DNA from: Methanosarcinales archaeon
GTDB taxonomy: Archaea; Halobacteriota; Methanosarcinia; Methanosarcinales; Methanocomedenaceae
NCBI GenBank assembly: GCA_030627385.1
Contig: DAOUSF010000001.1
Span: forward strand, 12,077 to 76,076
Length of the DNA stretch: 64,000 nt
Direction: 5' to 3'
Shown: positions 14,334-52,677 of the stretch, in pieces
Layout of the letters: each line of letters starts with the position of its first letter
Numbering within the stretch: the first letter of the stretch is position 1
Program-made: the position numbers and the translations under genes
The notes under the pieces: generated by a model
Told to the model about the DNA's origin: nothing
What the model saw: the letters and a program-made list of their open reading frames with translations, nothing else
The model's database searches: none

Positions 14334-14336
14334 TTA

Positions 14337-14365: not shown

Positions 14366-14397
14366 GTGTATACATAATAAAACAAAGGAGTCACACA

Positions 14398-17456: not shown

Positions 17457-17487
17457 GTGTATATAATAAATTAGACAAGGAGATTAA

Positions 17488-20726: not shown

Positions 20727-20751
20727 CTTTTATGTAAAATTATGTAAGAAT
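20723..20751 (+). promoter_or_regulatory. class-1 phage promoter, copy e
   Basis: TTGACT-17 nt-(TGT)AAGAAT followed by ATGTATAG. Confidence 0.65.
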
Positions 20752-20793
20752 ATGTATAGTTAAAAACGCTCACAAATAAACAGGAGGAAGACA

Positions 20794-24939: not shown

Positions 24940-25128
24940 TATAGTTGAATTTCATTGATTATAAATGCTGTTCAGCGTGGTTGCTTTACAGAGCTATTAA
25001 TGAATCGGGTAAAGATTGAAAGGGAGTAAAAAGACTCTTTTTAAAAAAAAATGGTCTTGATTGCCCATTGAATGTTACCAGCATTCGCCCTTTCAAGATC
25101 GGGATCATTTTTTTTAAAAGGAGTTTTT

Positions 25129-32215: not shown

Positions 32216-32279
32216 TGGTCCTGTGCAACATGCCGATATTACACGGATTTAATCTTAATGATTTTTTATTAAAAAGTGC

Positions 32280-32308
32280 TTGACTTCTCATTCATTTTTC
32301 ATTAAGAT
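32280..32308 (+). promoter_or_regulatory. class-2 promoter, copy f
   Basis: TTGACT-17 nt-TAAGAT, preceded by the A/T tract attttttattaaaaagtgc. Confidence 0.55.
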
Positions 32309-32948: not shown

Positions 32949-32985
32949 TCCTGCCCCTATGACATTTAATGAGTAACCCCGAAAA

Positions 32986-33028
32986 GGCGGAGCGTCCCTC
33001 AATTCCAACAGCTCCGCCTTTTTTATTT
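32986..33028 (+). terminator. rho-independent terminator
   Basis: GGCGGAGC (32986-32993) pairs with GCTCCGCC (33011-33018) and is followed by TTTTTTATTT. Confidence 0.8.
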
Positions 33029-33043
33029 CAAAAGGAAAACGAT

Positions 33044-33718: not shown

Positions 33719-34319
33719 AAAATATCCAGGTGCCATTCTTGCCAATGCATCAAAGCATGACCGAATCAAAGCATTGGTACATGATCTTTTGGTGGAAATC
33801 AATGAAAATCCAAATAGAACGGGATTGAAAGATACCCCTGAACGTGTTGCCAAAATGTACTCTGAAATATTCAGAGGATACGATGATTCACAGAAACCGA
33901 ACCTTACTGTTTTTCCAAATGACGATGATGGGCTTTCCTTCAAAGGTATGATAATTGATCAAGGATACTTTTTCAGTCATTGTGAGCATCATATGGTTCC
34001 CTTCTTTGGTCATTATTACTTCGGATATATTCCCGATAAAACACTGATTGGCGCCTCAAAGATTGGTAGATTGATCAATTTCCATTCAGCCAAATTGCAG
34101 ATAGCGGAGCGCCTGTGTCGTGTTGTGATAGATGACATTGAGGAGGCTGTGAAACCTCAGGGTTGTATTCTCATAATGACTGCCCGCCATTTGTGTAAAG
34201 AAATGAGAGGAGTCAAGATGTTTAACAGCCCGTTTGAGGCGGACGATGCACGTGGTTGCTTCCTTGAAAATCATGCAGGATGTAAAGATGAATTTATTAG
34301 CAGAATAGGAATTAAATAA
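33708..34319 (+). CDS. folE: GTP cyclohydrolase I FolE
   Basis: TGLKDTPERVAKMY, CEHHMVPFFG, KLQIAERL. Confidence 0.9.
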   Translation: MISRKYPGAILANASKHDRIKALVHDLLVEINENPNRTGLKDTPERVAKMYSEIFRGYDDSQKPNLTVFPNDDDGLSFKGMIIDQGYFFSHCEHHMVPFFGHYYFGYIPDKTLIGASKIGRLINFHSAKLQIAERLCRVVIDDIEEAVKPQGCILIMTARHLCKEMRGVKMFNSPFEADDARGCFLENHAGCKDEFISRIGIK

Positions 34320-34784
34320 ATGAAACATAAACATCTTGGATCAAACAAAACGGACTATCAGTTCTCCGAGCCCTCGGCTGATCTTCTGGACACATTCAAA
34401 AACAAACACCCTAATATCTATCTGGTACCATTTGTTATGCCCCGGGATGAGTTCACAAGTCTTTGTCCCGTCACGAATCAGCCTGACCAGGCAAAGATTG
34501 AAATAATCTATGTGCCTTTCGATGATATGGTTGAAAGTAAGTCCTTGAAACTGTATCTTTTCTCCTTTAGAAATAACGGAGAGTTTCATGAGGATGTTAT
34601 TAACAGAATAGCCAAGGATCTGTATTCAGCAATGAAGCCCTTGTATATTCGTGTTTATGGTGACTTTGCTCCACGTGGGGGTATTGCAATCAAACCCATG
34701 GTTGAATTGTGGAATTCCAATGACCCTCATGATACAAAGCTGATTGAAAATTATGTGAAAATGTGGGACAGGAAAAGGAATTAA
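34320..34784 (+). CDS. queF: NADPH-dependent 7-cyano-7-deazaguanine reductase QueF (unimodular YkvM type)
   Basis: [14 protein letters not shown] (catalytic Cys), QueF motif [17 protein letters not shown], and FAPRGGIAI. Confidence 0.9.
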
Positions 34785-37914: not shown

Positions 37915-40900
37915 ATGGGATTTTTCACTAAATCCCAGTTATCTAAGCGGTCCGAGGTCAAGGTTGATGTCAATGACTTGGAATCGGATTGCTTGGCTTG
38001 TGGGTTATTCAAAGACACAATCCATCCAAAGATGGAATACTCAGGACAAGGTCAAAAGAAGATTCTCATTATAGGTGAATTTTCAAGTGACGAAGATGAC
38101 CAATATGGTCAACATTTCTATGGAGAACGAGGCGATCCATTAAGACAGCAATTAAGGTTCAATAATGTCAATATGAACAAGGATTGCTGGAAAGTTAACG
38201 CTGTTCGATGCAATCCTGATGGACTTAATTTACCCAGTCCTGGCCAGGTTCAAAACTGCTTCCCGTATATCAAAAAAATGATCAAACAGTTAAAACCTAA
38301 ATTGATACTTCTTCTGGGTGATTTGGCTATTTCTTCATTGTACGGAAAGGATTTTTCAAACAGAAGCATACACAGATGGAGAAAGTATGTTATACCCGAT
38401 CAAGAGTTCAGTTGTAATGTTATTCCTCTATATCATCCCTATCATCTTTTCCGTCAATCCAAGAAAAAGAAGAAGAAAGACAAAAACCTCGAAAGTGTAT
38501 TCAATCGGGATCTAAAATTTGCTCTCAGACAGTTGGAACGCCCGGTTTTAACGACAAAGAACTATGAAAGCAATGTCACACTGTTAACAGACTTCAACCG
38601 CGTTAAAAAGCTGTTAAATCGAATCCTCAAGCGTAAATCAAAAATCTATTTTGATTATGAGTCCACAGGACTAAAGCCTTTCAGAAAAGGCCATAAGATT
38701 GTGACCATTGGTGTTGCTGTATCTGCCTCAAAAGCGTTTGCGTTTCCTTATCAGTGGAAAAGTTTCTGGACTCCCTCTGAATTAAAGGTTATAAAGAAAC
38801 TCTGGAAAAAGATTCTCAGGGATGATGAAATCCTAAAGATGGCGCACAATTGCTTTTCAGGTGATACAAAATATATAACTAAAGAAGGATTGAAGTCCTT
38901 TATTGATACAGAGAACACTACCCAAACAGTGTGGACAAAGGAAGGATGGAAGGATGCTAAAGTTAAATGTTATGGAAAAGATCATCTTTCTAAAATAGTA
39001 GTAGGCCCTGAACTTAGAAGTAGATCCAAGATTAAAAGAACTATTCACAGCACTGAAAATCACCGTTGGATTGTAAAAAGAAAATTCAATCATTGTTACC
39101 CTAATCCCTCTACCTTTAAAACTATAGAGGTTACCACAGACCAATTGAAATTAAGGGATAATATAATTTCGGAAATGCCCGAATTCACAATTGATCAAAA
39201 TACAGAGGCTTTTAGACATGGATTAATCCTTGCGGATGGAGGTCGTTCCAGTAAACATTCCCTTCATTTTCAAATCAGACTATGTGGTAAAAAAGAAAAG
39301 TATAAAGACATTTTTCCTAAATATACGTACCCCCTTTCTGCTAATGGTGATCCGGTTGTGAATTACTATAAAGCCTCTTGTGATATGAAGAAAGTTCCTG
39401 AGAATCCTACGGCAGAGTATGTAGCAAACTTTATAGCAGGATGGGATGCTGGTGACGGCACAGATTCAGCAACTGGAAGATCAAGAGTCATAACTACCTT
39501 TAATAAAGAACACGCTACATGGTTAAAGGACAATGCAGAACTTGGTGGATGGAAATGTACTGGATTTTCAGAACATATTAATTCGAAAGACTTTGATGGG
39601 AATTATATAGACCCGCACCCTTACTGGATGATAATATTAACAAAGGAGAAAGTAAACTGGACAGTAAAAGAAATAAAACACAAGGATAGATACGAGAAAG
39701 TGTACTGTGTTTCTTTACCAAAAGAGGAATTTACTCTCCAATATGGTATTTACACAAGGAATTGCAAATTTGAGCAAGTGTGGTCAAAGGTTATGTTCAA
39801 TGTAATGCCTAAGATTCACTTTGATACTATGATGGCAGAACATATCTTGGACAATAGATCAGCCTCAACAGGTTTGAAATTTCAGACGTTCATAAGGTTC
39901 GGTGTTAAGCCCTATGATAAAGATATTGCTCCCTTCCTAAAAGCAAAGAATGGAGAATTTAATACCATAGAAAAAGCACCATTCAAAGAGTTATTAACAT
40001 ACAATGGACTTGACTGCATTTATGGATGGATGGTATACGATAGACAGATCCTTGAAATAACCAAAAGACGGGACGTAAAGGATGCAATGAAAAGCGTTCT
40101 CGGTGAGGTTGATGCTCCCGAAAAAAGCCTACTTGGTGCTTACAATTTCTTCATGCGTGGTAACGAACAGATGGCTATTATCCAGCTTAACGGGATCAAT
40201 ATGGATTCCATTTATTATCAAAAAGCTGAAAAGAATCTGGAAAAGAAAGTCAAGGAGTTAAAGCACGGATTGGAGAATGGTCGTGAAGCGGAAATGTTTC
40301 ATAAAATGTTCGGACGACCAATCAGGATCACATCCAATCAAGATCTCGGAAAACTATTCTATGAAGTTCTGGGAAAAGATCCCGTCTATACTGCTAAAGG
40401 GGGGTATAAGACAGATAAAATGACTCTGGAGAGTTTGAATCTACCTTATGTAAAAAACCTCCTTAAAATGAAAAAGTACGAGAAAGCCAAGGGAACTTAT
40501 CTTGGTCAGTTTGCAAGAGAGATATTTAGGACAAAGATGTATCCATTCTGGGATCTTAATATTCCTGTCAGTTATAGGAGTTCATCATCAAAACCAAACT
40601 TTCAGAATATTCCTAAACGTGATGCAGAGATAAAGGCAATCATTAGAATGGGAATTGTTCCGAAAAAGGGATGTGTGTTAAGTGAAATTGATTTTTCAGG
40701 TGCGGAGGTTATAACTTCCGCCACTTACCACAAGGATCCAACATTTATTGCCTACTTGACAGAAAAAGATGCATCAGGTGAGTTGATAAATGATATGCAT
40801 AGAGATAATGCAACTGACCTTTTGATGTTACCTCCTGATATGCTTGAGAATCCTAAGTATTCAAGGGACCAGAAAAAGTTAATTAAAAAGATTCGATTCT

Positions 40901-41592
40901 TTGCCAAGAACAATTGGACTTTTGCTCAGTTCTACGGTGATTGGTTTGGTTCGTGTGCTCCTATGTTCTGGGAGAATGTTATTGAGGTGGACTTAGAACT
41001 TCCTAATGGCATGACTTGCCGAGAATGGCTTGAAGAAAAAGGCATCTATGAACTCGGAGAAGTAAAAGATGGAACTCCCACAGAGGGAAGCTTCATGGAG
41101 CATTGTGCCCATGTCCAAGAAAAGATGTGGAATGAACGATTTCCTGTATATACTCAGTGGAAGAAGGATATAGTTGAGAAATATAGAGAACATGGTTTTA
41201 TTCCCAATCATTTCGGTTTCAGATTCACAGGATATATGTCCGATAATCAGTGTACAAACTATCCCATCCAGTCAGCAAGTTTCCATCTGTTGGTTCATAC
41301 TCTGATTGAGGTACAGAAGTTCATTGATAAAAATAACCTGAAAACAAAGATAGTTGGGCAAATTCATGATAGTATTATCAGCAATGTTCCTGAAAATGAG
41401 ATCAAATTCTACCATGCAGGTGTTAACAAGATTGTAAAAGGCCTGATGAATGAATTTAAGTGGTTGATAATTCCAATGGAAATCGAAGCTGAAATAACCA
41501 AGTTAAGAGAAGATGGAGGAAACTTTTCTGACCTTAGAGAAGGTGACCCTGATAATATGGATTATGAAACAATCTGGAAGGAGGCAGCATGA
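37915..41592 (+). CDS. family A DNA polymerase with N-terminal UDG-family-4-like domain, 3'-5' exonuclease domain and an intein
   Basis: UDG-like IIGEFSSDEDD..FYGERGDPL, PLYHPYH. Exo I FDYESTGL and Exo II AHN|CKFEQVW. Pol motifs A (IDFSGAEV), B (RFFAKNNWTFAQFYG) and C (QIHDSI). Confidence 0.9.
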   Translation: MGFFTKSQLSKRSEVKVDVNDLESDCLACGLFKDTIHPKMEYSGQGQKKILIIGEFSSDEDDQYGQHFYGERGDPLRQQLRFNNVNMNKDCWKVNAVRCNPDGLNLPSPGQVQNCFPYIKKMIKQLKPKLILLLGDLAISSLYGKDFSNRSIHRWRKYVIPDQEFSCNVIPLYHPYHLFRQSKKKKKKDKNLESVFNRDLKFALRQLERPVLTTKNYESNVTLLTDFNRVKKLLNRILKRKSKIYFDYESTGLKPFRKGHKIVTIGVAVSASKAFAFPYQWKSFWTPSELKVIKKLWKKILRDDEILKMAHNCFSGDTKYITKEGLKSFIDTENTTQTVWTKEGWKDAKVKCYGKDHLSKIVVGPELRSRSKIKRTIHSTENHRWIVKRKFNHCYPNPSTFKTIEVTTDQLKLRDNIISEMPEFTIDQNTEAFRHGLILADGGRSSKHSLHFQIRLCGKKEKYKDIFPKYTYPLSANGDPVVNYYKASCDMKKVPENPTAEYVANFIAGWDAGDGTDSATGRSRVITTFNKEHATWLKDNAELGGWKCTGFSEHINSKDFDGNYIDPHPYWMIILTKEKVNWTVKEIKHKDRYEKVYCVSLPKEEFTLQYGIYTRNCKFEQVWSKVMFNVMPKIHFDTMMAEHILDNRSASTGLKFQTFIRFGVKPYDKDIAPFLKAKNGEFNTIEKAPFKELLTYNGLDCIYGWMVYDRQILEITKRRDVKDAMKSVLGEVDAPEKSLLGAYNFFMRGNEQMAIIQLNGINMDSIYYQKAEKNLEKKVKELKHGLENGREAEMFHKMFGRPIRITSNQDLGKLFYEVLGKDPVYTAKGGYKTDKMTLESLNLPYVKNLLKMKKYEKAKGTYLGQFAREIFRTKMYPFWDLNIPVSYRSSSSKPNFQNIPKRDAEIKAIIRMGIVPKKGCVLSEIDFSGAEVITSATYHKDPTFIAYLTEKDASGELINDMHRDNATDLLMLPPDMLENPKYSRDQKKLIKKIRFFAKNNWTFAQFYGDWFGSCAPMFWENVIEVDLELPNGMTCREWLEEKGIYELGEVKDGTPTEGSFMEHCAHVQEKMWNERFPVYTQWKKDIVEKYREHGFIPNHFGFRFTGYMSDNQCTNYPIQSASFHLLVHTLIEVQKFIDKNNLKTKIVGQIHDSIISNVPENEIKFYHAGVNKIVKGLMNEFKWLIIPMEIEAEITKLREDGGNFSDLREGDPDNMDYETIWKEAA
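38851..39762 (+). mobile_element. intein (304 aa) with LAGLIDADG domain inside the Exo II motif of the polymerase
   Basis: It starts CFSGDTKYITKEG. Block B is TENH. LAGLIDADG motifs are GLILADGG and FIAGWDAGDGT. It ends VYCVSLP...GIYTRN, followed by Cys as the +1 residue. Confidence 0.85.
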
Positions 41593-41617: not shown

Positions 41618-41672
41618 GTTAATGATTTATCATTAAAAAATACTTGACTTTTCATTGAAATTAGAATACTGT
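41618..41672 (+). promoter_or_regulatory. class-2 promoter with upstream palindromic box, copy g
   Basis: GTTAATGATTTATCATTAAAAAA (palindrome AATGAT-TT-ATCATT), then TTGACT (41644)-17 nt-TACTGT. Confidence 0.6.
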
Positions 41673-41714
41673 ATAAAAATAAATGAAAATCAATACGTAT
41701 ATAGAGGAAACATT

Positions 41715-42029
41715 ATGGGCAAAACAATCAGCGTTACAATTCCTGAGCCTTTGGAAGCCTTATTGCAAAATAAGGCTGATATAGCAGGGATGTCAAGATC
41801 AAGGTTTATATGTAACATTCTATTAAAGTGGGAAGAAAAGATGAAACAACCAAGAAGGCCCACTGAAATACCGGATAATATGGACATGGACACTGTTCCG
41901 AATGATTGTCCGAATCGGGATTCTGATGGGTTTTGTGTAGTGTTTGATCTTGTATGTAATGCTCCGCAACCTGAAGCAAATACATGTGTGGGTTGTCCGC
42001 GTGATGGTGACAAAGGGGGTGGCTCTTGA
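41715..42029 (+). CDS. ribbon-helix-helix protein with Cys-rich C-terminus
   Basis: MGKTISVTIPEPLEALLQNKADIAGMSRSRFICNILLKW fits the RHH pattern. ATG at 41715. Confidence 0.55.
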   Translation: MGKTISVTIPEPLEALLQNKADIAGMSRSRFICNILLKWEEKMKQPRRPTEIPDNMDMDTVPNDCPNRDSDGFCVVFDLVCNAPQPEANTCVGCPRDGDKGGGS

Positions 42030-43006
42030 GTTTGCAAACTGTTTATAGACCATCAACATTGAAAATGCTGGCAGGAAACCCTGATATCAAAAACAACCTC
42101 GAGACTATGTTAAAGAGAGACCAGCCTCCGGCTGCATTCTTAATTGTTGGACCTTCTGGATGCGGTAAAACTACTTTGGGAAGAATTATAGCCAGAGGGC
42201 TTGGGTGCTCCAAATCATCATTTAAGGAAATGAATACTGCAAATGACAGAGGACTTCCTGCAATACGAAAAGTTCTTGAAAAATTACATTATCTTCCTTT
42301 AAAAGGAAAGAAAAAGGTCGTATTGTTTGATGAAGCTCACCAAATAACACATGCATCACAGGAAGCATTATTGAAAGCATTGGAAGAGCCTCCCAAGCAT
42401 GTTCATTTCATAATCTGCACCACAAATCCCGAAGCTCTTAAAGACACATTTAAACGGCGTTGTCACATTTATGAAGTTGCACTATTGACAAGCAATGAAC
42501 TCTTAAAAATGATGCGGCGGATCTTATCTAATGAGTTCAAAAAGACTCCCGACAAAGCAAAGAACTTTCCGATTGACATTCTTGACAGGATAATTGAACT
42601 ATCAGGTGGATCCGCAGGAATTGCTCTGAAAAATTTAGATATGGTAATTGATATGAGTGATGACATTAAGGGAGCTTTGAAAACCCTAAAATCATCAGGC
42701 ACTACTGAGGCAGAAGTTCTGGACATTTGCCGTGCCATTCTCAATTTCGGTATCTCAGATAAAGCAAGATGGACCAGAGTTCGTAAACTCCTCACCTCTC
42801 TAAAAACAGATGGAGAATCAGCAAGACGGCCTATCATGGGTTATCTTTCCAAAGTACTCATCAATAATTCTATGGACAACAATAATGACCTCATTGCAGA
42901 GATCATGATGGAGTTCCGTAAAAACTTCTATGACAGCGGAAAGGACGAACTAAGGTTAGCTTGCTATGCCGCCTGCTCTGCAGGAGAAGAGGAGGAGGAG
43001 GAGTAA
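42026..43006 (+). CDS. clamp loader AAA+ ATPase (RFC / Pol III gamma-like)
   Basis: YRPSTL, Walker A GPSGCGKTT, Walker B LFDEAH, sensor 1 TTN, and an SRC-like FKRRC. TTG start in the track. Confidence 0.8.
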   Translation: MSLQTVYRPSTLKMLAGNPDIKNNLETMLKRDQPPAAFLIVGPSGCGKTTLGRIIARGLGCSKSSFKEMNTANDRGLPAIRKVLEKLHYLPLKGKKKVVLFDEAHQITHASQEALLKALEEPPKHVHFIICTTNPEALKDTFKRRCHIYEVALLTSNELLKMMRRILSNEFKKTPDKAKNFPIDILDRIIELSGGSAGIALKNLDMVIDMSDDIKGALKTLKSSGTTEAEVLDICRAILNFGISDKARWTRVRKLLTSLKTDGESARRPIMGYLSKVLINNSMDNNNDLIAEIMMEFRKNFYDSGKDELRLACYAACSAGEEEEEE

Positions 43007-43010
43007 TAAA

Positions 43011-43535
43011 ATGCCTGAACTTAGGAATTATAATATTGATATTGAGGTTGATGAGAATGACCTTGAGGGTGAATGGATAACTCATGCCTCCCTTTACATG
43101 CATTACGCAAAGATCCTTGCAGATTCCATTGCCAACCGTGATGAAGCAAAATTGAAGATGGACTGGGTTGCTGCTAATATTGACCTTGATGTTAGAAAAC
43201 ATTGGCAATCAAAATACGGTCTGGAGAAGTTAACTGAAGGTGCCGTAAAAAACATTACTATGATCAATAAAAAATATCTTAAGGCATATAGAAAATTCAA
43301 TAAATGTGTTAAGATAGTTAATTCCATGACCGGAGTTAGAACGGCTTTTGAGCATAAGAAACATGCTCTCGGAAACCTTGTCTCAATGCAGATATCGGGT
43401 TTCAATTCGGAGCCGAGAAACAAGGTCAGGGACTTACAGAAAAATATCAGTTCTGGCGATAATTTTAGACACAAAAAGGATCTGAATACGAGGATGAAAA
43501 ACAGGAGTAAAAAAAAGGAGGAGACAAGTGAATGA
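43011..43535 (+). CDS. hypothetical protein, possibly a UvsY-like recombination mediator
   Basis: Helical; IDENDLEGEWITHASLYMHYAKILA loosely resembles the T4 UvsY N-terminus. It lies upstream of the SSB and recombinase genes. Confidence 0.3.
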   Translation: MPELRNYNIDIEVDENDLEGEWITHASLYMHYAKILADSIANRDEAKLKMDWVAANIDLDVRKHWQSKYGLEKLTEGAVKNITMINKKYLKAYRKFNKCVKIVNSMTGVRTAFEHKKHALGNLVSMQISGFNSEPRNKVRDLQKNISSGDNFRHKKDLNTRMKNRSKKKEETSE

Positions 43536-43713
43536 AACACAGGCACAAATTTTATTAGATTTTGTTGATGAAAATTGGGCAAATTTTGAATTAAGATGTT
43601 CTGAGAAAAATGAGGACCCAGAACACATACGGAGTGAACTTGAAAAAATTGCTATAGGATAGGATTAAAGGGCTTAGACCCGTATTTCATTAAAACAGTA
43701 AGGAGAAAGTATT

Positions 43714-44634
43714 ATGAGTTTCAGGGACAGAATGAAACAACGCAAAGGTGGATTGAAAAAGAGGCACAATACGGCACCCAAGAAAAGTGGAGGCAGGTAT
43801 CCAACAGTATTTAATAAGAAGAACATTCCCGAAGGAGTGAACTTCTTTTCCTGTAAAGAAGGACAGCACATTGTTGATATCCTCCCCTGGGAAGCCGGGC
43901 CTGATATGCCTCTTGATGATCAGGGCCAGCCTGTCGTGGAAGAAGGCGGATTTGACTATGTTCTGGATTTGTATGTCCATCAGAATGTGGGTAAGATGCA
44001 GAAGCCCTACGTTTGTCCTTTTGAAAACTTTGGTGAATCATGTCCCATTTGTGAGTACATTAAAGCGAACAGATTGCCCAAAAAAGAATGGAGCAAGATT
44101 CGGGCAAAAAGGCGTTCCATATATCTGTTATGGGACAGAACTACTCCAGAATCGGAGAAAAAAGGTGTCCAGATTTTTGATGCCGCTCATTTCTTCATGG
44201 AAGAAAAAATCCTCGAAATCGCAAAGCTTCCCAGAGGTGGAGGATATGAAGTCTTTTCCGATCCTGATACAGGGAAAAGTGTATGCTGGACTCGTAAGGG
44301 TTCGGGGCAGGAAAATACACAGTACTTGGGCCACAGATTCATTGACAGGGAAGCACCAATCCCTGAAAGGATCCTTGACCAGGGCTTTGCTCTTGACCAG
44401 TGTATCAATATGCACCCTACTTATGAAGAAATCGCAGAAGAAGCGAAGGAATTACTTAGTAAGGGAAATCAAGCAACAGAAACGGATGACGATGTACCAT
44501 TTAAGGGTGATGAAGATATTCCGGATGATCATGTTCGGACGAATCGAAACCAAAAACAGGACAAAAAGGCGGGGGCAAAAAGTCCCAAAGCTGGCTTGAA
44601 TAAACGTGTGGTCCGCAGAGTTGTGAAAAAATAA
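43714..44634 (+). CDS. gp32-like ssDNA-binding protein
   Basis: YVCPFENFGESCPICEYIKANRL...KRRSIYLLW parallels the T4 gp32 region [24 protein letters not shown]...KRKTSYWAN. It has an acidic TDDDVPFKGDEDIPDD tail. 306 aa. Confidence 0.7.
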   Translation: MSFRDRMKQRKGGLKKRHNTAPKKSGGRYPTVFNKKNIPEGVNFFSCKEGQHIVDILPWEAGPDMPLDDQGQPVVEEGGFDYVLDLYVHQNVGKMQKPYVCPFENFGESCPICEYIKANRLPKKEWSKIRAKRRSIYLLWDRTTPESEKKGVQIFDAAHFFMEEKILEIAKLPRGGGYEVFSDPDTGKSVCWTRKGSGQENTQYLGHRFIDREAPIPERILDQGFALDQCINMHPTYEEIAEEAKELLSKGNQATETDDDVPFKGDEDIPDDHVRTNRNQKQDKKAGAKSPKAGLNKRVVRRVVKK

Positions 44635-44648
44635 AGGAGCATTGAAGA

Positions 44649-45830
44649 ATGAAAAAGAAGATCATCCTCAAAAAAAAGACTCCCATAAAGTTGCCCGTGA
44701 AGCTACCTGTTAAAAAGCTACCCGTCAAAAGTGAGTCGGAAGCAGTGGCAGAACAGTTTGACGAGCAACGGGAGGCAGAAGATTTCTATGATTATGAAAA
44801 GGAATCGTTTGTGGATCCTCTTACTCTAATTCCGACGGGCTCAACAACTTTCAATCTTGAATGCTCCGGACGTATCGAAGGGGCATTCAGGACTGGAAAA
44901 ATGGTCAATCTAATAGGAGATTCTCATGCTGGCAAAACTCTTTTTGCCTTTACAGTATTTGCGGAATGCGCCCTGCTGGAACGATTTGATAACTATAGGT
45001 TTATCTATGATGATGTTGAGGCCGCCAATGAGTTTAACCTTGCTTTATTATTCGGTAAGAAATGTGCCGACAGGATAGAGTTGGTCCGTTCCAAAACAAT
45101 TGAGGACTATAATGACAATATTGCCCGATACTTGGATGAGGGTCGTCCTTTCATTCATGTGCTGGATTCCTTTGATGCCTTGACTTCTGAGGCCGCCATG
45201 GAAAAAGATGCAGAGAACCGAAAAGCAAGAGAGAAGGGGAACAAAACCAAAGGAGATTATGGTGATGGTAAACCTAAGACATTCTCCCGTTTCTGTTCTC
45301 AAAGAATACAGGACCTAAGTGACAATGGATCCGCTTTAATCATTATCTCACAAACAAGGGATAACATAGGCTTTGGTGCTATGTTTACTCCCAAAACCAG
45401 ATCAGGAGGGAGGGCTCTAAAATTCTACGCCTTTCATGAAATTTGGCTTGCATGTCAGAAGAAGGAAAAAGAAGGGAAACGCACCATCGTTACAAATGTC
45501 CAGGCAAAAATCACCAAGAACAAATTGACTGGAAATCATGGTGAAGTTTATTTCCCTATACTACGTGATTATGGCGTTGATAACCTAAAGTCCTGTATAC
45601 ACTTCTTACAAGATGAAGGAGACTGGACGGGTACTGACGGAGCAATCAATACAAAAGGGTTTCTGGCACCCGATTTAACTTCTACCAATAAAAAGAAACA
45701 CCCATCCATTAAAATGATCATTGATGATATTGAACAAAATGACCGAGAATTGGAAATGTTCCGTCTCTGTCAAAGAACATTTGATCAAATTATGGAAAAT
45801 CTTAAACCTAAACGTAAACGAAAGTACTAA
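44649..45830 (+). CDS. RecA-superfamily recombinase (UvsX/RadA/Sak4-like)
   Basis: Walker A GDSHAGKT, Walker B HVLDSFDAL, IISQTRDNIG...RSGGRALKFYA. Confidence 0.7.
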   Translation: MKKKIILKKKTPIKLPVKLPVKKLPVKSESEAVAEQFDEQREAEDFYDYEKESFVDPLTLIPTGSTTFNLECSGRIEGAFRTGKMVNLIGDSHAGKTLFAFTVFAECALLERFDNYRFIYDDVEAANEFNLALLFGKKCADRIELVRSKTIEDYNDNIARYLDEGRPFIHVLDSFDALTSEAAMEKDAENRKAREKGNKTKGDYGDGKPKTFSRFCSQRIQDLSDNGSALIIISQTRDNIGFGAMFTPKTRSGGRALKFYAFHEIWLACQKKEKEGKRTIVTNVQAKITKNKLTGNHGEVYFPILRDYGVDNLKSCIHFLQDEGDWTGTDGAINTKGFLAPDLTSTNKKKHPSIKMIIDDIEQNDRELEMFRLCQRTFDQIMENLKPKRKRKY

Positions 45831-45847
45831 AGCCCTTGGAGAGAAAC

Positions 45848-46438
45848 ATGACTGGAAAGAAAACTGTAGTAAAAGACAATGGCGCCTTGAGCAGAATAAT
45901 CAGGGTAATGGTATCAAGACAAATTGATTATGCAAAGGTCAAAATTGAGTTTGAAGTGACTGAAAGCCTGTCGGAAGATCAGGAATGTGTAGAGGCGTTG
46001 ACAGGACTCTGTGAAGAATTGGAAACCCTTGCTGATAAGCGTATTGCCACTTATGATGAAGATTATGATCCCGATTCTGAACCCGATGCGGGAACAGACA
46101 AACCCGATTCTGAACCCGATTCTGAACCCGATGACACAGGTGACGACACGGGTGATGACACAGGAGCCGAGGAAATTGAACTTTCTGAGGATCTGATCAA
46201 TTCAATGAAAAAGGATGAGTTGATTGAACTCTGTGAAACTACAGAAGGCCTGGAAAATGTCGATACTTCCAAAAAAGTTACCCTTCTTAAAATGCTCATT
46301 ATTGATGCCCTTTTTGATGAAGAAGGGGGAGATGATACAGGCGGAGAAGATGACAACGGCACCGAAGAAGGTGATAGTGATGCCGGTGACAAAAGCGGTG
46401 ACGATGAGTGGCAGGATGATGACTGGCAAGATGATTAA
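45848..46438 (+). CDS. highly acidic repeat protein
   Basis: PDSEPD x3, DDTG x3 and a DDEWQDDDWQDD tail. ATG at 45848. Confidence 0.6.
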   Translation: MTGKKTVVKDNGALSRIIRVMVSRQIDYAKVKIEFEVTESLSEDQECVEALTGLCEELETLADKRIATYDEDYDPDSEPDAGTDKPDSEPDSEPDDTGDDTGDDTGAEEIELSEDLINSMKKDELIELCETTEGLENVDTSKKVTLLKMLIIDALFDEEGGDDTGGEDDNGTEEGDSDAGDKSGDDEWQDDDWQDD

Positions 46439-46471
46439 TGCATGATCAAAGTAATTTGACCACATAAATAA

Positions 46472-46502
46472 GAGATTCCCTGAGTTCTGCTTAGGGAGTC
46501 TC
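46472..46502 (+). terminator. 13-bp stem-loop (terminator or RNA-processing site candidate)
   Basis: GAGATTCCCTGAG-ttctg-CTTAGGGAGTCTC. There is no clear U-tract, and it sits just upstream of the FEN RBS. Confidence 0.35.
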
Positions 46503-46521
46503 CTTCACTTAAGGAGATCAG

Positions 46522-47403
46522 ATGGCACGGAAAAGGATTCTGTTAATGGACACCTCAAGTGTCCTACACATTGTAAAACACGCAGGAGGTAAACACCTCA
46601 AAGAAAAGGATAAGTCCACTTATATCATTCTTGGCTTTCTTTTTAAACTTCAATTATTAATGCAAAAAACCAAGCCTAATGTTTGTGCTTTTGCAACTGA
46701 CAGTCTTCCGGAAGATTCTGTCAGGAGAAAAATGTATCCAGGCTATAAGTTCAAAAGAAATACCCGAGAAAAGTCGGAGGCTGATCTTGCATTGGATGCA
46801 ATAGCATGGCCACAATTTGATGCTATGGAACAAGAAGTGTTGCCTATGATGGGATACTCTAATATATTCCTCACAAAGGGTCTTGAAGCTGATGACATAA
46901 TCGGAAAAATCTGTAAGTCCTACAAAAACTGTGAAATCATCATAGTAACCTCAGATCAAGATATGTATCAATTATTAACTCCCACCACATGCATCTTGAA
47001 ACCCAAAACCTCCACGTATTATACAAAGGCAATGTTTTTGAAGGAATATGGAATTGAGCCTTATATGTGGAAAAGAGTAAAAGCAATCGGGGGTTGCTCA
47101 ACTGATGAGGTTAAGGGCGTTCAAGGAGTTGCTGAAAATACTGCTTTGAAATATATTAAAGGTGAATTACCCGAGCATTGGAAATCATACAAAGCCATAA
47201 TCAGTAAGGAAGGAAAGAGAGTAATCAATCGAAACAAGTCCCTTGTGATACTTCCGTTTAGAAGAACACCTGAATACGATGTTCAACCTGATAGGGTAAG
47301 CAAGATCAGAGTTCAAGGAATGGCCAAACAATATGGATTCAAAGCAATATTGTCTGACCTGGAAAACTGGACAAGAATATTAAAAGGATGGGGATCGGTA
47401 TGA
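46522..47403 (+). CDS. 5'-3' exonuclease / flap endonuclease (T4 RNase H-like)
   Basis: ILLMDTSS, YPGYKFKR, GLEADDIIG, VTSDQDMYQLL and GGCSTDEVKGVQGVAENTA (H3TH). Confidence 0.85.
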   Translation: MARKRILLMDTSSVLHIVKHAGGKHLKEKDKSTYIILGFLFKLQLLMQKTKPNVCAFATDSLPEDSVRRKMYPGYKFKRNTREKSEADLALDAIAWPQFDAMEQEVLPMMGYSNIFLTKGLEADDIIGKICKSYKNCEIIIVTSDQDMYQLLTPTTCILKPKTSTYYTKAMFLKEYGIEPYMWKRVKAIGGCSTDEVKGVQGVAENTALKYIKGELPEHWKSYKAIISKEGKRVINRNKSLVILPFRRTPEYDVQPDRVSKIRVQGMAKQYGFKAILSDLENWTRILKGWGSV

Positions 47404-47930
47404 TAAAATTAACCCATAAAGAGTTATTAAGACAATTAATGTACAATCCTTGGAATGGTTTGTTTTATTGGAAAGTATCTAATTATTGGTCTGTAAAAGT
47501 TGGAAGTATTGCGGGAAGTTCAGATAAAGATGGGTATATCATAATAGGCATTAATGGAAAATCATATAAAGCACACAGGCTTGCTTGGTTTTATGTTTAT
47601 AATTGCTGGCCTGGAAAAAACTGTCATCATCGGGATGAGATAACATATCACAATTGGATTAGTAATTTAGGTGATGTATCACGTTCTGTCAATAACAGAA
47701 TCTCAGGAAATAATAAAAATAATACGAGTGGAGTAAAAGGTGTAAAATGGGATAAACAATCAAACAGATGGGAAACAGAAATTCATATAGATAGCAAATG
47801 TGTATATCTTGGTCGCCACAAAGATTTTGATGAGGCTGTTTGTCATAGATTAGCCTGTGAACAATGTATAGGTGATGAAAATTCTGAATCAACCAGTCCT
47901 GCTTATTTATACGTACAAGGAATGCTATGA
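47388..47930 (+). mobile_element. free-standing HNH homing endonuclease with AP2-type DNA-binding domain
   Basis: FYWKV...DGYIIIGINGKSYKAHRLAWFY...HHRD...N (HNH_3 type); NTSGVKGVKWDKQSNRWETEI...LGRHKDFDEAV (AP2). Confidence 0.8.
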
Positions 47931-48529
47931 AGAAAATATCAATAAGACAACCAAGACAACCAAGACAACCAAGACAAATTAAGCAGGAAGAATTAATCAA
48001 AATAAGGAAATTTTTTCATAAGAAACAAAATGGAATTTGTCCTATACTTAAATTACGTTTTAATGTATCTAAAATGTGTGTGGATCATGCTCATACTGCA
48101 AATTCAAATAATCTGGGTAGACCAGAGGAGGCGGGATTGATTCGTGGAGTTATACACAGACAAGCAAATACAATGGAAGGTAAGATAACAAATTCCTTCA
48201 TTCGTTGCGGTCTGCATAAGTTTGATATCACTATGCCTGACTTCCTTAGGCATCTGGCTGACTTCATTGAAAAACCTACTATGACTCATTTGGGATACAT
48301 TCATCCGAATGAAGTGCCCAAAGGTAAATATCTCGGAAAAACTTGTATGAATAGATTGGTAAAAGCATACAATCACAAATATCCTGGAAGAAATATTCCT
48401 GACGTTATGATATACAAAAAATGGAAAAAAGGAAAGAAAAAAGGAAAAGAAAAAGGCAAGAAGTTAACAGCAGGACTGGAGCGATTGTTCGAGGAGTTCA
48501 GTATAGAACCCAGTTTTTTAAAAGGATAA
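47927..48529 (+). CDS. endonuclease VII (T4 gp49)-like junction resolvase homolog
   Basis: QNGICPILKLRFN..CVDHAHT...AGLIRGVIHRQANTMEGKI...IHPNEV is collinear with T4 gp49 QNGKCLICQREL..HLDHDHE...GKVRGLLCNLCNAAEGQM...IHPNFV. The N-terminus carries an RQP x3 repeat. Confidence 0.65.
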   Translation: MKKISIRQPRQPRQPRQIKQEELIKIRKFFHKKQNGICPILKLRFNVSKMCVDHAHTANSNNLGRPEEAGLIRGVIHRQANTMEGKITNSFIRCGLHKFDITMPDFLRHLADFIEKPTMTHLGYIHPNEVPKGKYLGKTCMNRLVKAYNHKYPGRNIPDVMIYKKWKKGKKKGKEKGKKLTAGLERLFEEFSIEPSFLKG

Positions 48530-48530
48530 T

Positions 48531-48905
48531 ATGATAAACACGGATGAAATAACCAAACGAATCAATCAGCATCATTGCAAAATGTTTGGAGTTGATACCT
48601 TCAGTTCAGAAATGAGGCTTGATTATAAGCCCACAACTAAGAAAGAAATAAATTATTTTAAGGTATTCTTCTTCTTTGAGTTTTGTTCCGAACATGTGAA
48701 GTCTTTTTATCCATGGCTATTTAAATGGACAGTGGATGGCAAAAGTTGGGAAGGGCTTATTGATCCTATAATTAAAATTACACAAGATGGTAAAAATATC
48801 TCTTATGATTTGGATGAACATGCAATGAGAGAATCGGTATATAAGTTAATCCAAGCAAAAAAAGCAAATAATAACTATGGAGAATTACACAATGAATTAC
48901 ACTGA
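48531..48905 (+). CDS. hypothetical protein
   Basis: 124 aa, co-oriented. Confidence 0.55.
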   Translation: MINTDEITKRINQHHCKMFGVDTFSSEMRLDYKPTTKKEINYFKVFFFFEFCSEHVKSFYPWLFKWTVDGKSWEGLIDPIIKITQDGKNISYDLDEHAMRESVYKLIQAKKANNNYGELHNELH

Positions 48906-49467
48906 GGCTATAATAGTACTGGCACAACACCACATGACTCCCGAAGGATTTGATTTGTTGATGAAAATAGAAGGAAGAATGCCTGATATCTGGAACAAGC
49001 CCTCATCAAGCACAGGGAAATATCACAAGAAAGAGGATGGATCAGTTCCCACAATTGCTCATCATACCTATGAAATGCTTTATGCAGGAGCAAAGATCAT
49101 CCGCATGTTTGGCGGCAAAGTTGTTTCCATTCAAAATGATGCGTATATTATGGCGATTATTCTCCATGATATTCAGAAGTATGGCCCCAAAGGTAATATG
49201 CCTCACACAAATAATTATCATGATCGTTCAATGGCAGATCTGCTTGAGAAAAACAAGAGTGCCCTTAAAACACATTTCACAACCACTCAGGCAGATCTTG
49301 TTATTGCAGGAGTAAGATACCACAGTGGTAGATGGAGCAAGAGTGTCCCGAACATGAACGATTTCACCTTTGAACAATACCCTTCCGTTGTTATGTTTCT
49401 GCATATGCTGGACATGATGAGTACTGCGGACGTTTTGAAATTTCCTGATGTAAATAATGGGAGATAA
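48877..49467 (+). CDS. HD-domain phosphohydrolase
   Basis: KYHKKEDGSVPTIAHHT, IILHDIQKYG (HD) and RYHSGRW. The start is either 48877 or 48892. Confidence 0.6.
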   Translation: MENYTMNYTEAIIVLAQHHMTPEGFDLLMKIEGRMPDIWNKPSSSTGKYHKKEDGSVPTIAHHTYEMLYAGAKIIRMFGGKVVSIQNDAYIMAIILHDIQKYGPKGNMPHTNNYHDRSMADLLEKNKSALKTHFTTTQADLVIAGVRYHSGRWSKSVPNMNDFTFEQYPSVVMFLHMLDMMSTADVLKFPDVNNGR

Positions 49468-49512
49468 TGTCTTTAAGGATAAAAAATTATACCACTATAG
49501 GAGAATGCAGTT

Positions 49513-49806
49513 ATGTTAAAAAAGATCCTTGTTAAAAAATACAAATATAAAAATGGCTGGGATGGTACAATTAAGAAGGTTGAAATAATAAGAGAAACAG
49601 ACCGTAGTGTTTTCTTTTTGGGGGGAGGTAGATCTCCTAAAAATTCCAATAGTACAGTTTTCAGAGATACCCCCAATGAGGTTTTCCTTTGGCTTAAAGA
49701 ACGTCTTGAAAATGAAATGGATAGAGCGCAAAAGGAGTATATACGCAGAAAAGGAAAATATGATACACTGATAAACATGGGAACAGGATGGGAACAGGGG
49801 GCATAA
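49513..49806 (+). CDS. hypothetical protein
   Basis: 97 aa, basic. Confidence 0.5.
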   Translation: MLKKILVKKYKYKNGWDGTIKKVEIIRETDRSVFFLGGGRSPKNSNSTVFRDTPNEVFLWLKERLENEMDRAQKEYIRRKGKYDTLINMGTGWEQGA

Positions 49807-50100
49807 ATGATACCGTTCATAAATCTAAAGTGGAACAAAGAGAACGTATGGGTCGGTGATGCAGTTATCAAGTTCTATCATGGACAGAAATGTCCTTATT
49901 GCAGTTTTGCAGGAAAAGGCTACAATGATCTTGATAGTGAAGGCCCTTGGGATTTTGAATGCTATAACTGTAAACGGGAATGGTCAGTTGTTATGGATGA
50001 AGATGCTAAGGAAAAGAGAAAGTATCTTCTTGACACCCTCCATGAAATTGATTTTCTAATTGGAAGTGCCAAAGCGGTAAGGGGGTTTAAAAAAAGATGA
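49807..50100 (+). CDS. hypothetical zinc-ribbon protein
   Basis: CPYC...CYNC. Confidence 0.5.
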   Translation: MIPFINLKWNKENVWVGDAVIKFYHGQKCPYCSFAGKGYNDLDSEGPWDFECYNCKREWSVVMDEDAKEKRKYLLDTLHEIDFLIGSAKAVRGFKKR

Positions 50101-50402
50101 TTGAATTTTCCTGTAAAGATTGTGGAAGACTTCTGACAATTGATAGCTCATTAACTATTACCAGCCACACTATGATCAAAATCGGACCCTGTGAAAACTG
50201 TGATAATAACAGGTGTATAAAAGATACCTGTGATAAATTTACTGAATTAAAAGACGAACTCCAAGAAACAATTACCCAGCAACAAATTGATATTGAGGGT
50301 AATGATGAAATGCTCCAAGGAGTACAAAAATTGTCAGAAAGATGGGGCGGTTTAATAAAAAGGGAAATAAATGAAATCCTTGAAGGAGATAAAAATAAAT
50401 GA
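50097..50402 (+). CDS. hypothetical zinc-ribbon protein
   Basis: CKDCG...CENC; ATGA coupling. Confidence 0.5.
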   Translation: MIEFSCKDCGRLLTIDSSLTITSHTMIKIGPCENCDNNRCIKDTCDKFTELKDELQETITQQQIDIEGNDEMLQGVQKLSERWGGLIKREINEILEGDKNK

Positions 50403-51772
50403 GTCTTAAAATCGTACATCAAAACATGATCAAAATTAAAGATACAAAGTCTACGAATGCAAAGATATCAATGCTTGCTGAAATGCTCAAAAATGATACA
50501 TTCCGCTCAGTTATCACACTAATGTATGATGATGCGAAGCATTTTAAAGTGAACAAGCTTCCAAATAAAATGAAAGTGTCAGGAGGCCTTCTGGCTCCAT
50601 CAAGTTCTAACCATAATCAAGAGTTGTTTGCCTATCTGGAAAAATTAGCCCTACAAAAGGGTACGTCCAATTTGGATAAACAGAAATTGTGCAAACTCGC
50701 CTCAGTGGATACAGAAACATTTGAGGTGGTTACTCGGATTATAAACAAGGACGCTAAGTGTGGAATCGGTGGGAAGTCTATCAACAAGGCAATGTCTGAT
50801 CTTCTTTTCCTTATGCCCTATTGTCGATGCAGTACAGAAAAGGCGAAGATGGGGAATATTGATTATGAAAGAGGCGCCATTGGCCAAGAGAAAGCGGACG
50901 GAATGTTTGATAATATCATTATCGACCGCAATGGAGGTGTGTTATTCAGAACCAGAAATGGCAACATTATCCACCAGTTAGACCACCTTAAGGAGTTCTT
51001 ACAGAAAGCTCCTGAAAAATACAGGGATACTGTTTACATGGGGGAACTCCTTGTTAGTGTTGGAGGAAAGATTCTCCCCCGAAAAACAGGAAACGGGATT
51101 CTATCTTCATGTTTACAGAATACAGCGGATCCAAAAATGGCAAGGCAAGTCATCATAAAATTGTGGGATGCTGTTCCTCAAAAAGACTTCTGGGCGGGAT
51201 CATCTGAAATAGCCTACACGTATAGACTCAGTAGAGTGTCCACGTTCGTAAGGGAAATGGCAACTATTCAGCTATTTGAACAATCTCCTATAGAAACATT
51301 CTGGGTGCATAAAATAGAGTCCGTAATGTTACATTCCTTAGAAGAGGCACAAGCGTTTTACAAAAGATTGAGAGGTGAGGGAAAAGAAGGCGCCATTATA
51401 AAGAACATCCTTGCTAAATGGAAGGATAACACTTCTCCCGATCAAGTCAAAATGAAAGCTTGCAAGGATGTTGAACTTAGGATAGTAGGCTGGAAGTATG
51501 GCAAAGCTGATACAAGGTTCCATGATTGTATGGGTTCTGTTCAGTTGAAATCCGATGATGATCTTATCTTTGTTTCCGTAAGCGGATTCACCGACGATGA
51601 GAGACTCCTTGATTGGGATGCAAGAATAGGAAAGATAGCTACCCTTGAGTGTGACGGAATCATTTCTGACAAAGGCAAACCAGGCGTATACTCTCTTTAT
51701 CTTCCCAGAAATCTTGAAATGCGCCCTGATAGATCCAATACAGATAACTTAAAAAGCTTAAAAAAGAGGTAA
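50399..51772 (+). CDS. ATP-dependent DNA ligase
   Basis: Motif I EKADGMF (adenylation Lys), EGAIIKN, DQVKMK. Confidence 0.8.
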   Translation: MSLKIVHQNMIKIKDTKSTNAKISMLAEMLKNDTFRSVITLMYDDAKHFKVNKLPNKMKVSGGLLAPSSSNHNQELFAYLEKLALQKGTSNLDKQKLCKLASVDTETFEVVTRIINKDAKCGIGGKSINKAMSDLLFLMPYCRCSTEKAKMGNIDYERGAIGQEKADGMFDNIIIDRNGGVLFRTRNGNIIHQLDHLKEFLQKAPEKYRDTVYMGELLVSVGGKILPRKTGNGILSSCLQNTADPKMARQVIIKLWDAVPQKDFWAGSSEIAYTYRLSRVSTFVREMATIQLFEQSPIETFWVHKIESVMLHSLEEAQAFYKRLRGEGKEGAIIKNILAKWKDNTSPDQVKMKACKDVELRIVGWKYGKADTRFHDCMGSVQLKSDDDLIFVSVSGFTDDERLLDWDARIGKIATLECDGIISDKGKPGVYSLYLPRNLEMRPDRSNTDNLKSLKKR

Positions 51773-51775
51773 AAA

Positions 51776-52162
51776 ATGAAAGAGGGTTATTACCATTTAT
51801 ACAGTCCTGATGAAAAAGAACCTACATTGGTTCATGGATACTATTGTACTGACGAAGGAGGACAATTCGTCTTTGGGTTTAATACACATGACGGCGGAGG
51901 ATTGGTACGTCTTGACGATTTACGCAAAGAGTCAACTGTAATTCCTGTAACATTGAAGGAGCCCAGACTTGACTCTGTAAAAGATGAAAACAAAGAAAAA
52001 GGAATGAAGTATCTTTGTGAAGAAAATGATAATACCATTGAATACAGGCCTCTGGACAGTGAATTTTATATTGGACATGAATCAGGAGTTGGTGGTTACT
52101 GGGTTATCGGGGAACAGGACTTGAAACTTGCCCTGATGGAATTCGGCATTACCATTGAATAG
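51776..52162 (+). CDS. hypothetical protein
   Basis: RBS AAGAGG; 128 aa. Confidence 0.55.
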   Translation: MKEGYYHLYSPDEKEPTLVHGYYCTDEGGQFVFGFNTHDGGGLVRLDDLRKESTVIPVTLKEPRLDSVKDENKEKGMKYLCEENDNTIEYRPLDSEFYIGHESGVGGYWVIGEQDLKLALMEFGITIE

Positions 52163-52174
52163 GGAAGTATAAAA

Positions 52175-52229
52175 GTTAATGATTTATCATTAAAAAACGC
52201 TTGACTTTATTTGTCGTGTGTAGTACGAT
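52175..52229 (+). promoter_or_regulatory. class-2 promoter with upstream palindromic box, copy h
   Basis: Its 23-nt box GTTAATGATTTATCATTAAAAAA is identical to the one at 41618. It is followed by TTGACT (52201)-17 nt-TACGAT. The next ATG (52236) lies 7 nt after the -10. Confidence 0.6.
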
Positions 52230-52235: not shown

Positions 52236-52445
52236 ATGAAAAATTACAAAAAAAGACGGCTTTACAATAAGAATGAATTTTGCAAATCAGTTTCCTGTTC
52301 TTGGCTTCACCCGATTACAAAAACGTGTGGAGACAAGGACGGGAATTGTTGTTTTACGGCAAAGGAATTTCACCATTGGTTAATTAAAAATAACTTTAGG
52401 ATTGTAAAAGATGAAAAAGATAGTAACCAAGACGTCAATTCGTAG
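52236..52445 (+). CDS. hypothetical Cys-rich protein
   Basis: 69 aa with no SD. Its position suggests a leaderless or near-leaderless mRNA. Confidence 0.45.
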   Translation: MKNYKKRRLYNKNEFCKSVSCSWLHPITKTCGDKDGNCCFTAKEFHHWLIKNNFRIVKDEKDSNQDVNS

Positions 52446-52677
52446 GAAATTAGAACAGAAGGCAAAAGTATTGATGATCTGTAATGCCAAGAAAAAGTTT
52501 GATCATTGCCTTACTTATTGCACTCATGGGATTTATCATGAAAAAGAAGTAGGAAGAGATGCCTGCCATAATAATACCGAAATCTGTAAAATACAACCCA
52601 GGATAGTTAGAGTCACTTGTCGGCATCTTACCGCTCAGGAAAAGCGAGATTGGATTGAAAAGGAAATAAACAAATGA
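52411..52677 (+). CDS. hypothetical Cys/His-rich protein
   Basis: 88 aa. It overlaps the previous ORF, so the start is uncertain. Confidence 0.45.
   Translation: MKKIVTKTSIRRKLEQKAKVLMICNAKKKFDHCLTYCTHGIYHEKEVGRDACHNNTEICKIQPRIVRVTCRHLTAQEKRDWIEKEINK

Follow-up and report, generated by a model that had tools for sequence, protein, structure and literature searches.

Two heptamers in 11-bp phase upstream of three phage promoters: a putative host-type promoter element and a predicted leaderless gene

Gene context and sequence of the boxes

The 64-kb window analyzed here (positions 12,077 to 76,076 of contig DAOUSF010000001.1, assembly GCA_030627385.1, deposited as a Methanosarcinales archaeon) is part of a phage contig of ~101 kb, the phage having a GC content of 38%. 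This work concerns a 23-nt box that precedes two promoters of this phage in identical form (boxes 1 and 2) and a third one in looser form (box 3). W denotes the phage of the window, labels such as L124 or L003 denote compared loci, and box counts cover the 64-kb window. Megablast of the 41-53 kb region gave no match among GenBank phages. No annotated close relative was found: tblastn of the polymerase gave only ~23% identity, to T5-like phages. Essentially all genes of the window are carried by the + strand, and most have a strong Shine-Dalgarno sequence (SD).

The genes behind the boxes are distributed as follows. Box 3 precedes the gene of a 189-aa protein (32379), a QueC/FolE/QueF cluster and then a UDG-PolA fusion. 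Box 1 precedes the gene of a ribbon-helix-helix (RHH) protein of 104 aa (41715..42029, + strand), directly upstream of a clamp loader gene (42026-43006), with SSB-like and UvsX-like genes after it. Box 2 precedes the genes of two small Cys-rich proteins of 69 aa (p69; 52236..52445, + strand) and 88 aa (p88). The RHH protein, p69, p88 and the 189-aa protein have no significant family match in Pfam or PHROGs.

The 23-mer GTTAATGATTTATCATTAAAAAA is found exactly at 41618-41640 (box 1) and 52175-52197 (box 2), both on the + strand. These are its only two copies: no other was detected in the window at up to 3 mismatches, and 100 shuffles gave none. It is a perfect 8-2-8 dyad, TTAATGAT-TT-ATCATTAA, running into an A6 tract. 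Box 3 (CTTAATGATTTTTTATTAAAAAG, 32254-32276, + strand) is identical to it at 19 of 23 positions, with two mismatches in one arm of the dyad. Each box is followed by 3 nt, TTGACT, a 17-nt spacer and a TAnnnT hexamer (TACTGT, TACGAT and TAAGAT for boxes 1, 2 and 3). An earlier, sequence-only reading of this stretch had reported the two identical palindromic boxes, their position 3 nt upstream of TTGACT and the looser version before the promoter at 32280, and our analysis bears out these observations.

Each box comprises two heptamers. In box 1, a flipped distal unit (TTAATGA, 41619-41625) is followed by a proximal unit (TCATTAA, 41630-41636) and by the A6 tract (41635-41640). Its core promoter (41644..41672, + strand) consists of the -35 hexamer (41644-41649), a spacer with the heptamer-like TCATTGA (41652-41658) and the -10 hexamer TACTGT (41667-41672), with a start predicted at ~41679; the consensus match, together with conservation in L124, L125, L120, L126 and L127, suggests that this promoter is active. 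In box 2 the heptamers lie at 52176-52182 (flipped) and 52187-52193 and the A6 tract at 52192-52197, and the core promoter (52201..52229, + strand) has its -35 at 52201-52206, a 17-nt spacer ending in GTAG and TACGAT at 52224-52229. In box 3 the flipped distal unit TTAATGA (32255-32261) precedes a degenerate proximal unit, TTATTAA (32266-32272); box 3 is kept in L126. The corresponding core promoter (32280..32308, + strand) contains TTGACT (32280-32285), TCATTCA in the spacer (32288-32294), TCATTAA overlapping the -10 (32299-32305) and TAAGAT (32303-32308). When the start is taken 7 nt after the -10, the boxes span ~-61 to -39, with units at ~-60..-54 and -49..-43 and the A-tract at -44..-39. 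At box 2, we also observed GTAGTA abutting or overlapping the -10 (52219-52224); it is present in all box 2 orthologs (L120, L121, L122, L041, L116, L115 and L118) and also at the promoter at 24917 (24935-24940), and its position differs from that of a canonical extended -10.

The similarity of boxes 1 and 2 is confined to the element. Box and -35 are identical (23/23 and 6/6), whereas only 1/3 linker positions, 5/17 spacer positions and 5/15 positions upstream of the box agree. Since the flanks are so little alike, the identity of the boxes reflects constraint or homogenisation and is not the remnant of a long recent duplication. The grammar heptamer-N4-heptamer-N6-8-TTGA[CT], with up to 2 mismatches, has 3 occurrences in the window, all of them intergenic and on the + strand, compared with 0.12 in shuffles. 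Counted singly, the heptamer shows no genome-wide excess (22 observed, 25 expected); only phased pairs are over-represented.

A predicted leaderless gene behind box 2

At box 2 the promoter runs directly into the p69 gene (TACGAT-cataaa-ATG), with 6 nt between the -10 and the ATG at 52236. Whereas 76 of the 99 open reading frames (ORFs) of the window have an SD-like 4-mer, none is found upstream of this ATG. The ATG is the only possible start, because the frame is closed by a TAG 5 codons upstream and the next 15 codons contain no start codon. p69 is a real gene, conserved among relatives. Six diverged lineages (W, L120, L121, L122, L041 and L116) have a distance of 35-36 nt from TTGAC to the ATG, and the -10 therefore ends 6-9 nt before the ATG in all of them. 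In L182 (~8400) and L183 (~8640), only 25 codons are left of a decayed p69, whose ATG still stands 6 nt after the -10. As described below, cellular genes with the same promoter grammar share this geometry. The earlier proposal that the lack of an SD and the proximity of the -10 make this transcript leaderless is thus strengthened, and p69 is probably the first cistron of a leaderless mRNA. p69 and p88 (52236-52677) are both small Cys/His-rich proteins kept across relatives, with no family match.

Conservation in related phages

Relatives were gathered via a ligase-like protein, the RHH protein and a dCMP deaminase, and 20 orthologous promoters were aligned on TTGAC. Heptamer occupancy was counted at up to 1 mismatch, the background being 0.0075 per position. 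The conserved unit is the TCATTAA heptamer in strict 11-bp phase, and not dyad symmetry. Occupied offsets from TTGAC are as follows: -25 in 10/20 promoters (6 direct, 4 flipped), -14 in 12/20 (always direct), -3 in 3/20 (direct), +8 in 11/20 (8 direct, 3 flipped) and +19 in 3/20 (direct). In box 1 of the closest relatives (L124, L125, L120, L126 and L127) the direct repeat TCATTAA-N4-TCATTAA-N7-TTGACT stands at the coordinates of the box in W. W has a palindrome there because its distal unit is inverted in place (TTAATGA). A flipped distal unit is found elsewhere: in box 3 of L126, partly in box 2 of L118 and L121, and in an unrelated phage (L003/L010).

Box 1 of W differs from that of L124 and L125 only over the distal ~11 nt, where it equals box 2 with its 4-nt linker included; this may reflect intragenomic homogenisation of the 23-mers. 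The element is evolutionarily labile at box 2, as it is degenerate or absent there in L115, L182 and L183. Across phages of 43-87% protein identity, and in cellular promoters described in the next section, the units keep their position, phase and sequence.

An exact scan of IMG/VR for the palindrome returned mostly chance matches in coding sequence; promoter-like matches were found only in L003 and L010. These two loci (reverse complement of 12466-12530 and of 4876-4940, respectively) belong to a GC-richer, unrelated phage, with TTAATGA-N4-TCATTAA-N7/8-TTGACT and a second pair over the -10. No protein is common to L003/L010 and the window.

The same promoter grammar in Patescibacteria genomes

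TCATTAA-N4-TCATTAA-N6/7-TTGAC was scanned in one genome per species (185,579 species), which gave 39 matches. Ten of them are in metagenome-assembled genomes labelled Saccharibacteria, Minisyncoccia, Patescibacteria (group), Paceibacterota or Parcubacteria. Four others are in unlabelled bins resembling this group, also called candidate phyla radiation (CPR): two of these records are shorter than 1 Mb and one has the shared RNA locus described below. All 14 CPR or CPR-like matches have N7, as in the phage, with an additional A behind each unit and a TAnnAT-type -10 at ~17 nt. Since these 14 loci are 47-63% GC, a chance origin of the AT-rich 19-mer is very improbable. The remaining 25 matches are scattered over many phyla, several of them inside tandem repeats, which by our own estimate is about the chance level in ~600 Gb. 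The grammar TCATTAA-N4-TCATTAA-N7-TTGAC-17-TAnnAT is therefore enriched in Patescibacteria/CPR genomes, the CPR share of the collection being taken as a few percent by estimate.

A test that did not select on the motif was made by fetching homologs of one CPR coiled-coil protein by protein sequence alone. All of them have nCATTAA-N4-TTATTAA-N7-TTGACT-17-TATCAT-6-ATG upstream. Genes of small coiled-coil proteins also follow other CPR-type copies, with their ATG a few nt after the -10, and neighbouring genes in the coiled-coil loci start 7-8 nt after TATAAT-like hexamers, with no SD. These cellular genes thus share the -10-to-ATG geometry of p69, and they too appear to be leaderless. No homolog of the phage RHH protein was found in the fetched CPR stretches. 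Because CPR cellular promoters carry the grammar in such stretches, some host component must be able to read the element.

In five CPR-type loci (L131, L134, L147, L158 and L164) the promoter precedes one common small RNA locus. At ~30-330 nt after the promoter, this locus contains a conserved RNA of ~75 nt with a hairpin resembling an intrinsic terminator, and then a complementary tRNA-like domain. The tRNA-like part has a sub-threshold Rfam match to tmRNA (19 bits, E 1e-5) and is called an odd tRNA by ARAGORN; neither Rfam at gathering threshold nor ARAGORN identified the RNA. It may be a split or unusual tmRNA of Patescibacteria.

The RHH protein encoded behind box 1

The RHH assignment is supported by structure prediction and by a profile alignment. 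The AlphaFold2 (AF2) model has a pLDDT above 90 over residues 11-30, and its top Foldseek matches are almost all RHH proteins (Rv0298/MazE-mt10, CopG-DNA 1ea4, Arc, PutA and NikA; target-normalised TM 0.7-0.84). The profile of the protein aligns end to end with CopG, and the Pfam match is weak and NikA-like. In the strand predicted to read DNA, K/I-T-I-S-V/I-T-I-P, there is almost no variation. Homologs are rare: only 8 were found in 5.8 billion proteins, all of them phage-like. The C-terminal domain (residues 60-95), with its four invariant Cys (C-X8-C-X6-C-X9-C), matches no family and has no confident fold; it may serve this DNA-binding protein as a metal or redox module.

Relatives keep the RHH and clamp-loader genes as a pair. 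The RHH gene is first behind box 1 in W, L124, L125, L120, L126, L127 and L116, and both upstream units have at most 1 mismatch each in these loci. A heptamer-like spacer unit at +8, in either orientation, is found in 6/7 of these box 1 orthologs; its first bases, TTGACTTTTC, are also present in CPR cellular promoters. In L119 and L029 the RHH gene is kept with no promoter or heptamers upstream.

Interpretation of the box

We propose, with a probability of about one half, that these are composite promoters of sigma-A type with the box as their upstream half: a UP-like element read by the host and copied by the phage, with a leaderless mRNA at 52236. The box would consist of two TCATTAA units (the distal one inverted in W) at an 11-bp interval, the second of which ends 7 bp from a near-consensus TTGACT. 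A host component would dock on both units on one face of the DNA and boost initiation where the -10 is imperfect. The default reader would be the two flexibly tethered C-terminal domains of the RNA polymerase alpha subunit (alpha-CTD), and the alternative a conserved host factor. The phage would have placed this host-type element before three operons: deazaguanine and DNA polymerase genes, RHH/clamp loader/SSB/recombinase genes, and the block of small proteins. In the last of these, transcription would start at the A of ATG 52236 or within 1-2 nt of it, giving a leaderless mRNA.

The position at -60 to -43, the 11-bp spacing, the adjoining A-tract, the fixed proximal unit and the flipping distal unit would suit two independently tethered alpha-CTDs, and a conserved host factor as well. 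A CPR host is pointed to by the fact that the phage promoters, box 2 especially, copy a promoter of Patescibacteria type down to its leaderless layout. What the analysis shows is the anatomy of the boxes, their conservation and phase in relatives, their presence in CPR genomes, the RHH fold and the kept distance from -10 to ATG; that the promoters are active, what reads the element and stimulates transcription, where transcription starts and that the host is a CPR bacterium are inferred from it.

Several observations weigh against this proposal. Each unit has a conserved C (G if flipped), which is unusual for alpha-CTD sites, normally degenerate A/T tracts. A UP-like role does not account for the heptamer-like units in the spacer and over the -10 of box 1 and box 3 orthologs, which suggest a regulator. 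Conservation is best at the promoter of the RHH gene itself, and at box 2 the element is lost or degenerate in the fairly close L182, L183 and L115. Promoter mimicry is the only feature that points to a CPR host: the dCMP deaminase search showed no CPR signal, the nearest cellular homologs being taxonomically mixed and not CPR. The phage is 38% GC compared with ~50% in the CPR loci, and strong SDs are the rule among its genes. Finally, the proportion of CPR bases among the scanned genomes (a few percent) is an estimate and not a computed value.

The most serious competitor takes the heptamers as operators of the phage RHH protein. Its dimers would bind successive units on one face of the DNA and in either orientation, so as to autoregulate box 1 and co-regulate boxes 2 and 3, for example in a late shut-off of the replication genes. 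Such a model draws on the RHH fold indicated by AF2, Foldseek, the CopG profile alignment and the weak NikA-like Pfam match, and on the place of the gene directly behind box 1 in seven loci, where the units are best conserved. It would account for units of both orientations in 11-bp phase (-25, -14, -3, +8, +19) on one face, for the spacer unit in 6/7 box 1 orthologs and for the near invariance of the DNA-reading strand; the omega regulator likewise uses direct and inverted repeats at several promoters (PMC4627068). However, the N4/N7 grammar is also present at CPR cellular promoters and at a promoter of an unrelated phage, with an RHH homolog detected neither in the fetched CPR stretches nor in L003/L010, and L119 and L029 keep the gene with no promoter or heptamers upstream. 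These facts argue that RHH is not the sole reader. An activator role would moreover be circular, the RHH protein itself being made from a box promoter. We regard this explanation as unlikely on its own, although RHH is a credible second reader of the heptamers, in autoregulation or shut-off, and the two models could be reconciled if it competes with the host reader. Thus the RHH candidate regulator named by the sequence-only reading is retained in part: such a protein is encoded directly behind box 1, but the same grammar precedes CPR promoters in stretches with no RHH homolog.

The same reading had seen in the palindrome a classic activator or repressor site. As stated this is unsupported, because direct TCATTAA repeats replace the dyad in box 1 of L124, L125, L120, L126 and L127. 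The idea would be that a symmetric dimeric regulator, either an early phage protein or a host factor such as a Fur-like one, binds the 8-2-8 palindrome, centred at ~-51.5, and requires the dyad. The dyad is indeed perfect and identical at two promoters, and the L003/L010 phage has two TTAATGAT-NN-ATCATTAA motifs in an operator-like arrangement at a TTGACT promoter, where the first precedes the -35 and the second covers the -10. Box 3, in contrast, has two mismatches in one arm, and only one HTH protein (HTH_36) and no sigma factor were detected among the window ORFs. A Fur box is a 19-bp 9-1-9 inverted repeat (GATAATGATAATCATTATC): the core AATGAT/ATCATT is common to both, but the spacing here is 8-2-8, and a Fur box was rejected. 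A symmetric operator is thus very improbable. A hairpin or terminator was also discarded: as RNA or DNA the dyad folds weakly (~-5 kcal/mol, z -0.7 to -1.5), and what comes after it is an A-tract and not a T-tract. The least probable view, by a little, denies the box any specific function and explains it by copy-and-paste (gene conversion) between AT-rich regions upstream of promoters, or by curved DNA with phased A-tracts. The distal departure of W box 1 from L124 and L125 and its identity with box 2 suggest homogenisation, and lability at box 2 would agree with this view. Against it stand the maintenance of the units in phages and CPR promoters, the lack of conservation in the flanks and the weak hairpin potential. 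In our judgement the palindromic operator should give way to a putative upstream element of host type, made of two heptamers in phase, on which the RHH protein may act in addition.

A broader form of this host-type proposal is offered tentatively, at clearly less than even odds. In it the heptamer pair (TCATTAAA x2, 11-bp phase, 7 bp before the -35) would be a lineage-wide, sequence-specific promoter element of CPR bacteria, often with leaderless first genes. Lytic deazaguanine phages of ~100 kb would have copied it and would thus be CPR phages; RHH may bind the units, switching phage and possibly host promoters. To our knowledge, the promoter architecture of Patescibacteria is almost unexplored and their phages are known only by metagenomic inference. 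In the literature searched, we found no description of an upstream promoter motif in CPR, nor of promoters or leaders of CPR phages. If the element is a true CPR upstream element, it would provide a handle on CPR promoters and leaderless genes from sequence only, promoter mimicry would be a route to host assignment for uncultured phages, and the emerging genetics of Saccharibacteria would gain ready-made strong promoters. For the phage, it would mean a regulon of three promoters controlling replication and DNA-modification genes, with RHH as candidate regulator.

Other features of the window

The window holds a near-complete set of 7-deazaguanine (preQ0/queuosine-type) genes: QueC, FolE, QueF-like, QueD-like and QueE-like, located at 32969-34784 and, for the radical-SAM and PTPS genes, upstream of 32215. 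This set implies modified DNA. The UDG-PolA fusion (37915-41592) is 1225 aa long and has a weak intein match; its orthologs in L126 and L127 have 912 and 920 aa, which suggests an insertion of ~300 aa, probably an intein. The clamp loader is 770 aa long in L029 (4528-6840) compared with 326 aa in W, probably also because of an intein.

A second promoter class, TTGACT-17-(TGT)AATAAT with a spacer dyad TTACRT-N6-AYGTAA, serves the upstream region of small early genes. Five copies were found (7108-7155, 10214-10261, 14325-14372, 17416-17463 and 20711-20758), and the dyad looks like the operator of a different regulator for this region. A 59-nt repeat with a stem-loop (GGTGATAT...GTCGCC) is present in three copies between small early genes (4758-4816, 6058-6116 and 7044-7102). 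The first 3 kb are poor in ORFs and contain an array of CCTATGATAACATTGTT-like repeats with a period of ~20 nt (1233-1449 and 2068-2108). The array is iteron-like and may mark an origin or packaging region.

Comparison with known systems

The UP element of rrnB P1 type, read by alpha-CTD, is the closest parallel to the boxes. Both lie directly upstream of the -35, at ~-38 to -60, with two subsites ~11 bp apart on one face and an A-tract at the proximal subsite, and both serve promoters of presumably well-expressed cellular genes. The UP consensus of Estrem et al. 1998 (a paper cited in PMC12641261) is said to be AAAAAARNR for the proximal and AWWWWWTTTTT for the distal subsite. The proximal A6 of the boxes (-44..-39) fits it; the distal part matches at ~6/11 by hand alignment, its conserved C/G being atypical. 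The boxes also differ in having a defined heptamer with C/G, an invertible distal unit and, in the phages, units reaching into the spacer and the -10.

The RHH protein omega of pSM19035 recognizes heptad operators, direct or inverted, at several promoters (PMC4627068). Similarities with the phage are the 7-bp units in either orientation, their presence at several promoters of one replicon and the RHH gene behind one of them. The omega units overlap or adjoin the -35 and mediate concentration-dependent activation and repression (PMC4627068). They are contiguous WATCACW heptads with a 7-bp period, whereas the phage units are TCATTAA, 11 bp apart, and the phage-type element is also found in cellular genomes without the protein. 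In Arc/Mnt of P22 and CopG of pMV158, RHH dimers likewise occupy subsites of their own promoter that are spaced by about one helical turn on one DNA face, and the predicted N-terminal domain of the phage RHH superposes on both Arc and CopG. Their operators have dyad symmetry and overlap the core promoter, whereas in the phage the best-kept units precede the -35 and the symmetry is not kept among relatives.

The late promoters controlled by P2 Ogr and P4 Delta have a dyad centred near -55. As in W, several phage promoters thus have a dyad ahead of the -35, with small Cys-rich proteins encoded nearby (p69 and p88 in W). They differ in that the dyad of W is not conserved in relatives and that the -35 of W is near consensus. 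Leaderless mRNAs are known for lambda cI from PRM and are common in Actinobacteria, Deinococcus and archaea. p69 resembles them by its ATG start ~7 nt after the -10 and its lack of an SD, the start being here predicted from the DNA. What distinguishes it from these known cases is that the layout is common to a phage gene and to cellular genes of its presumed host lineage.

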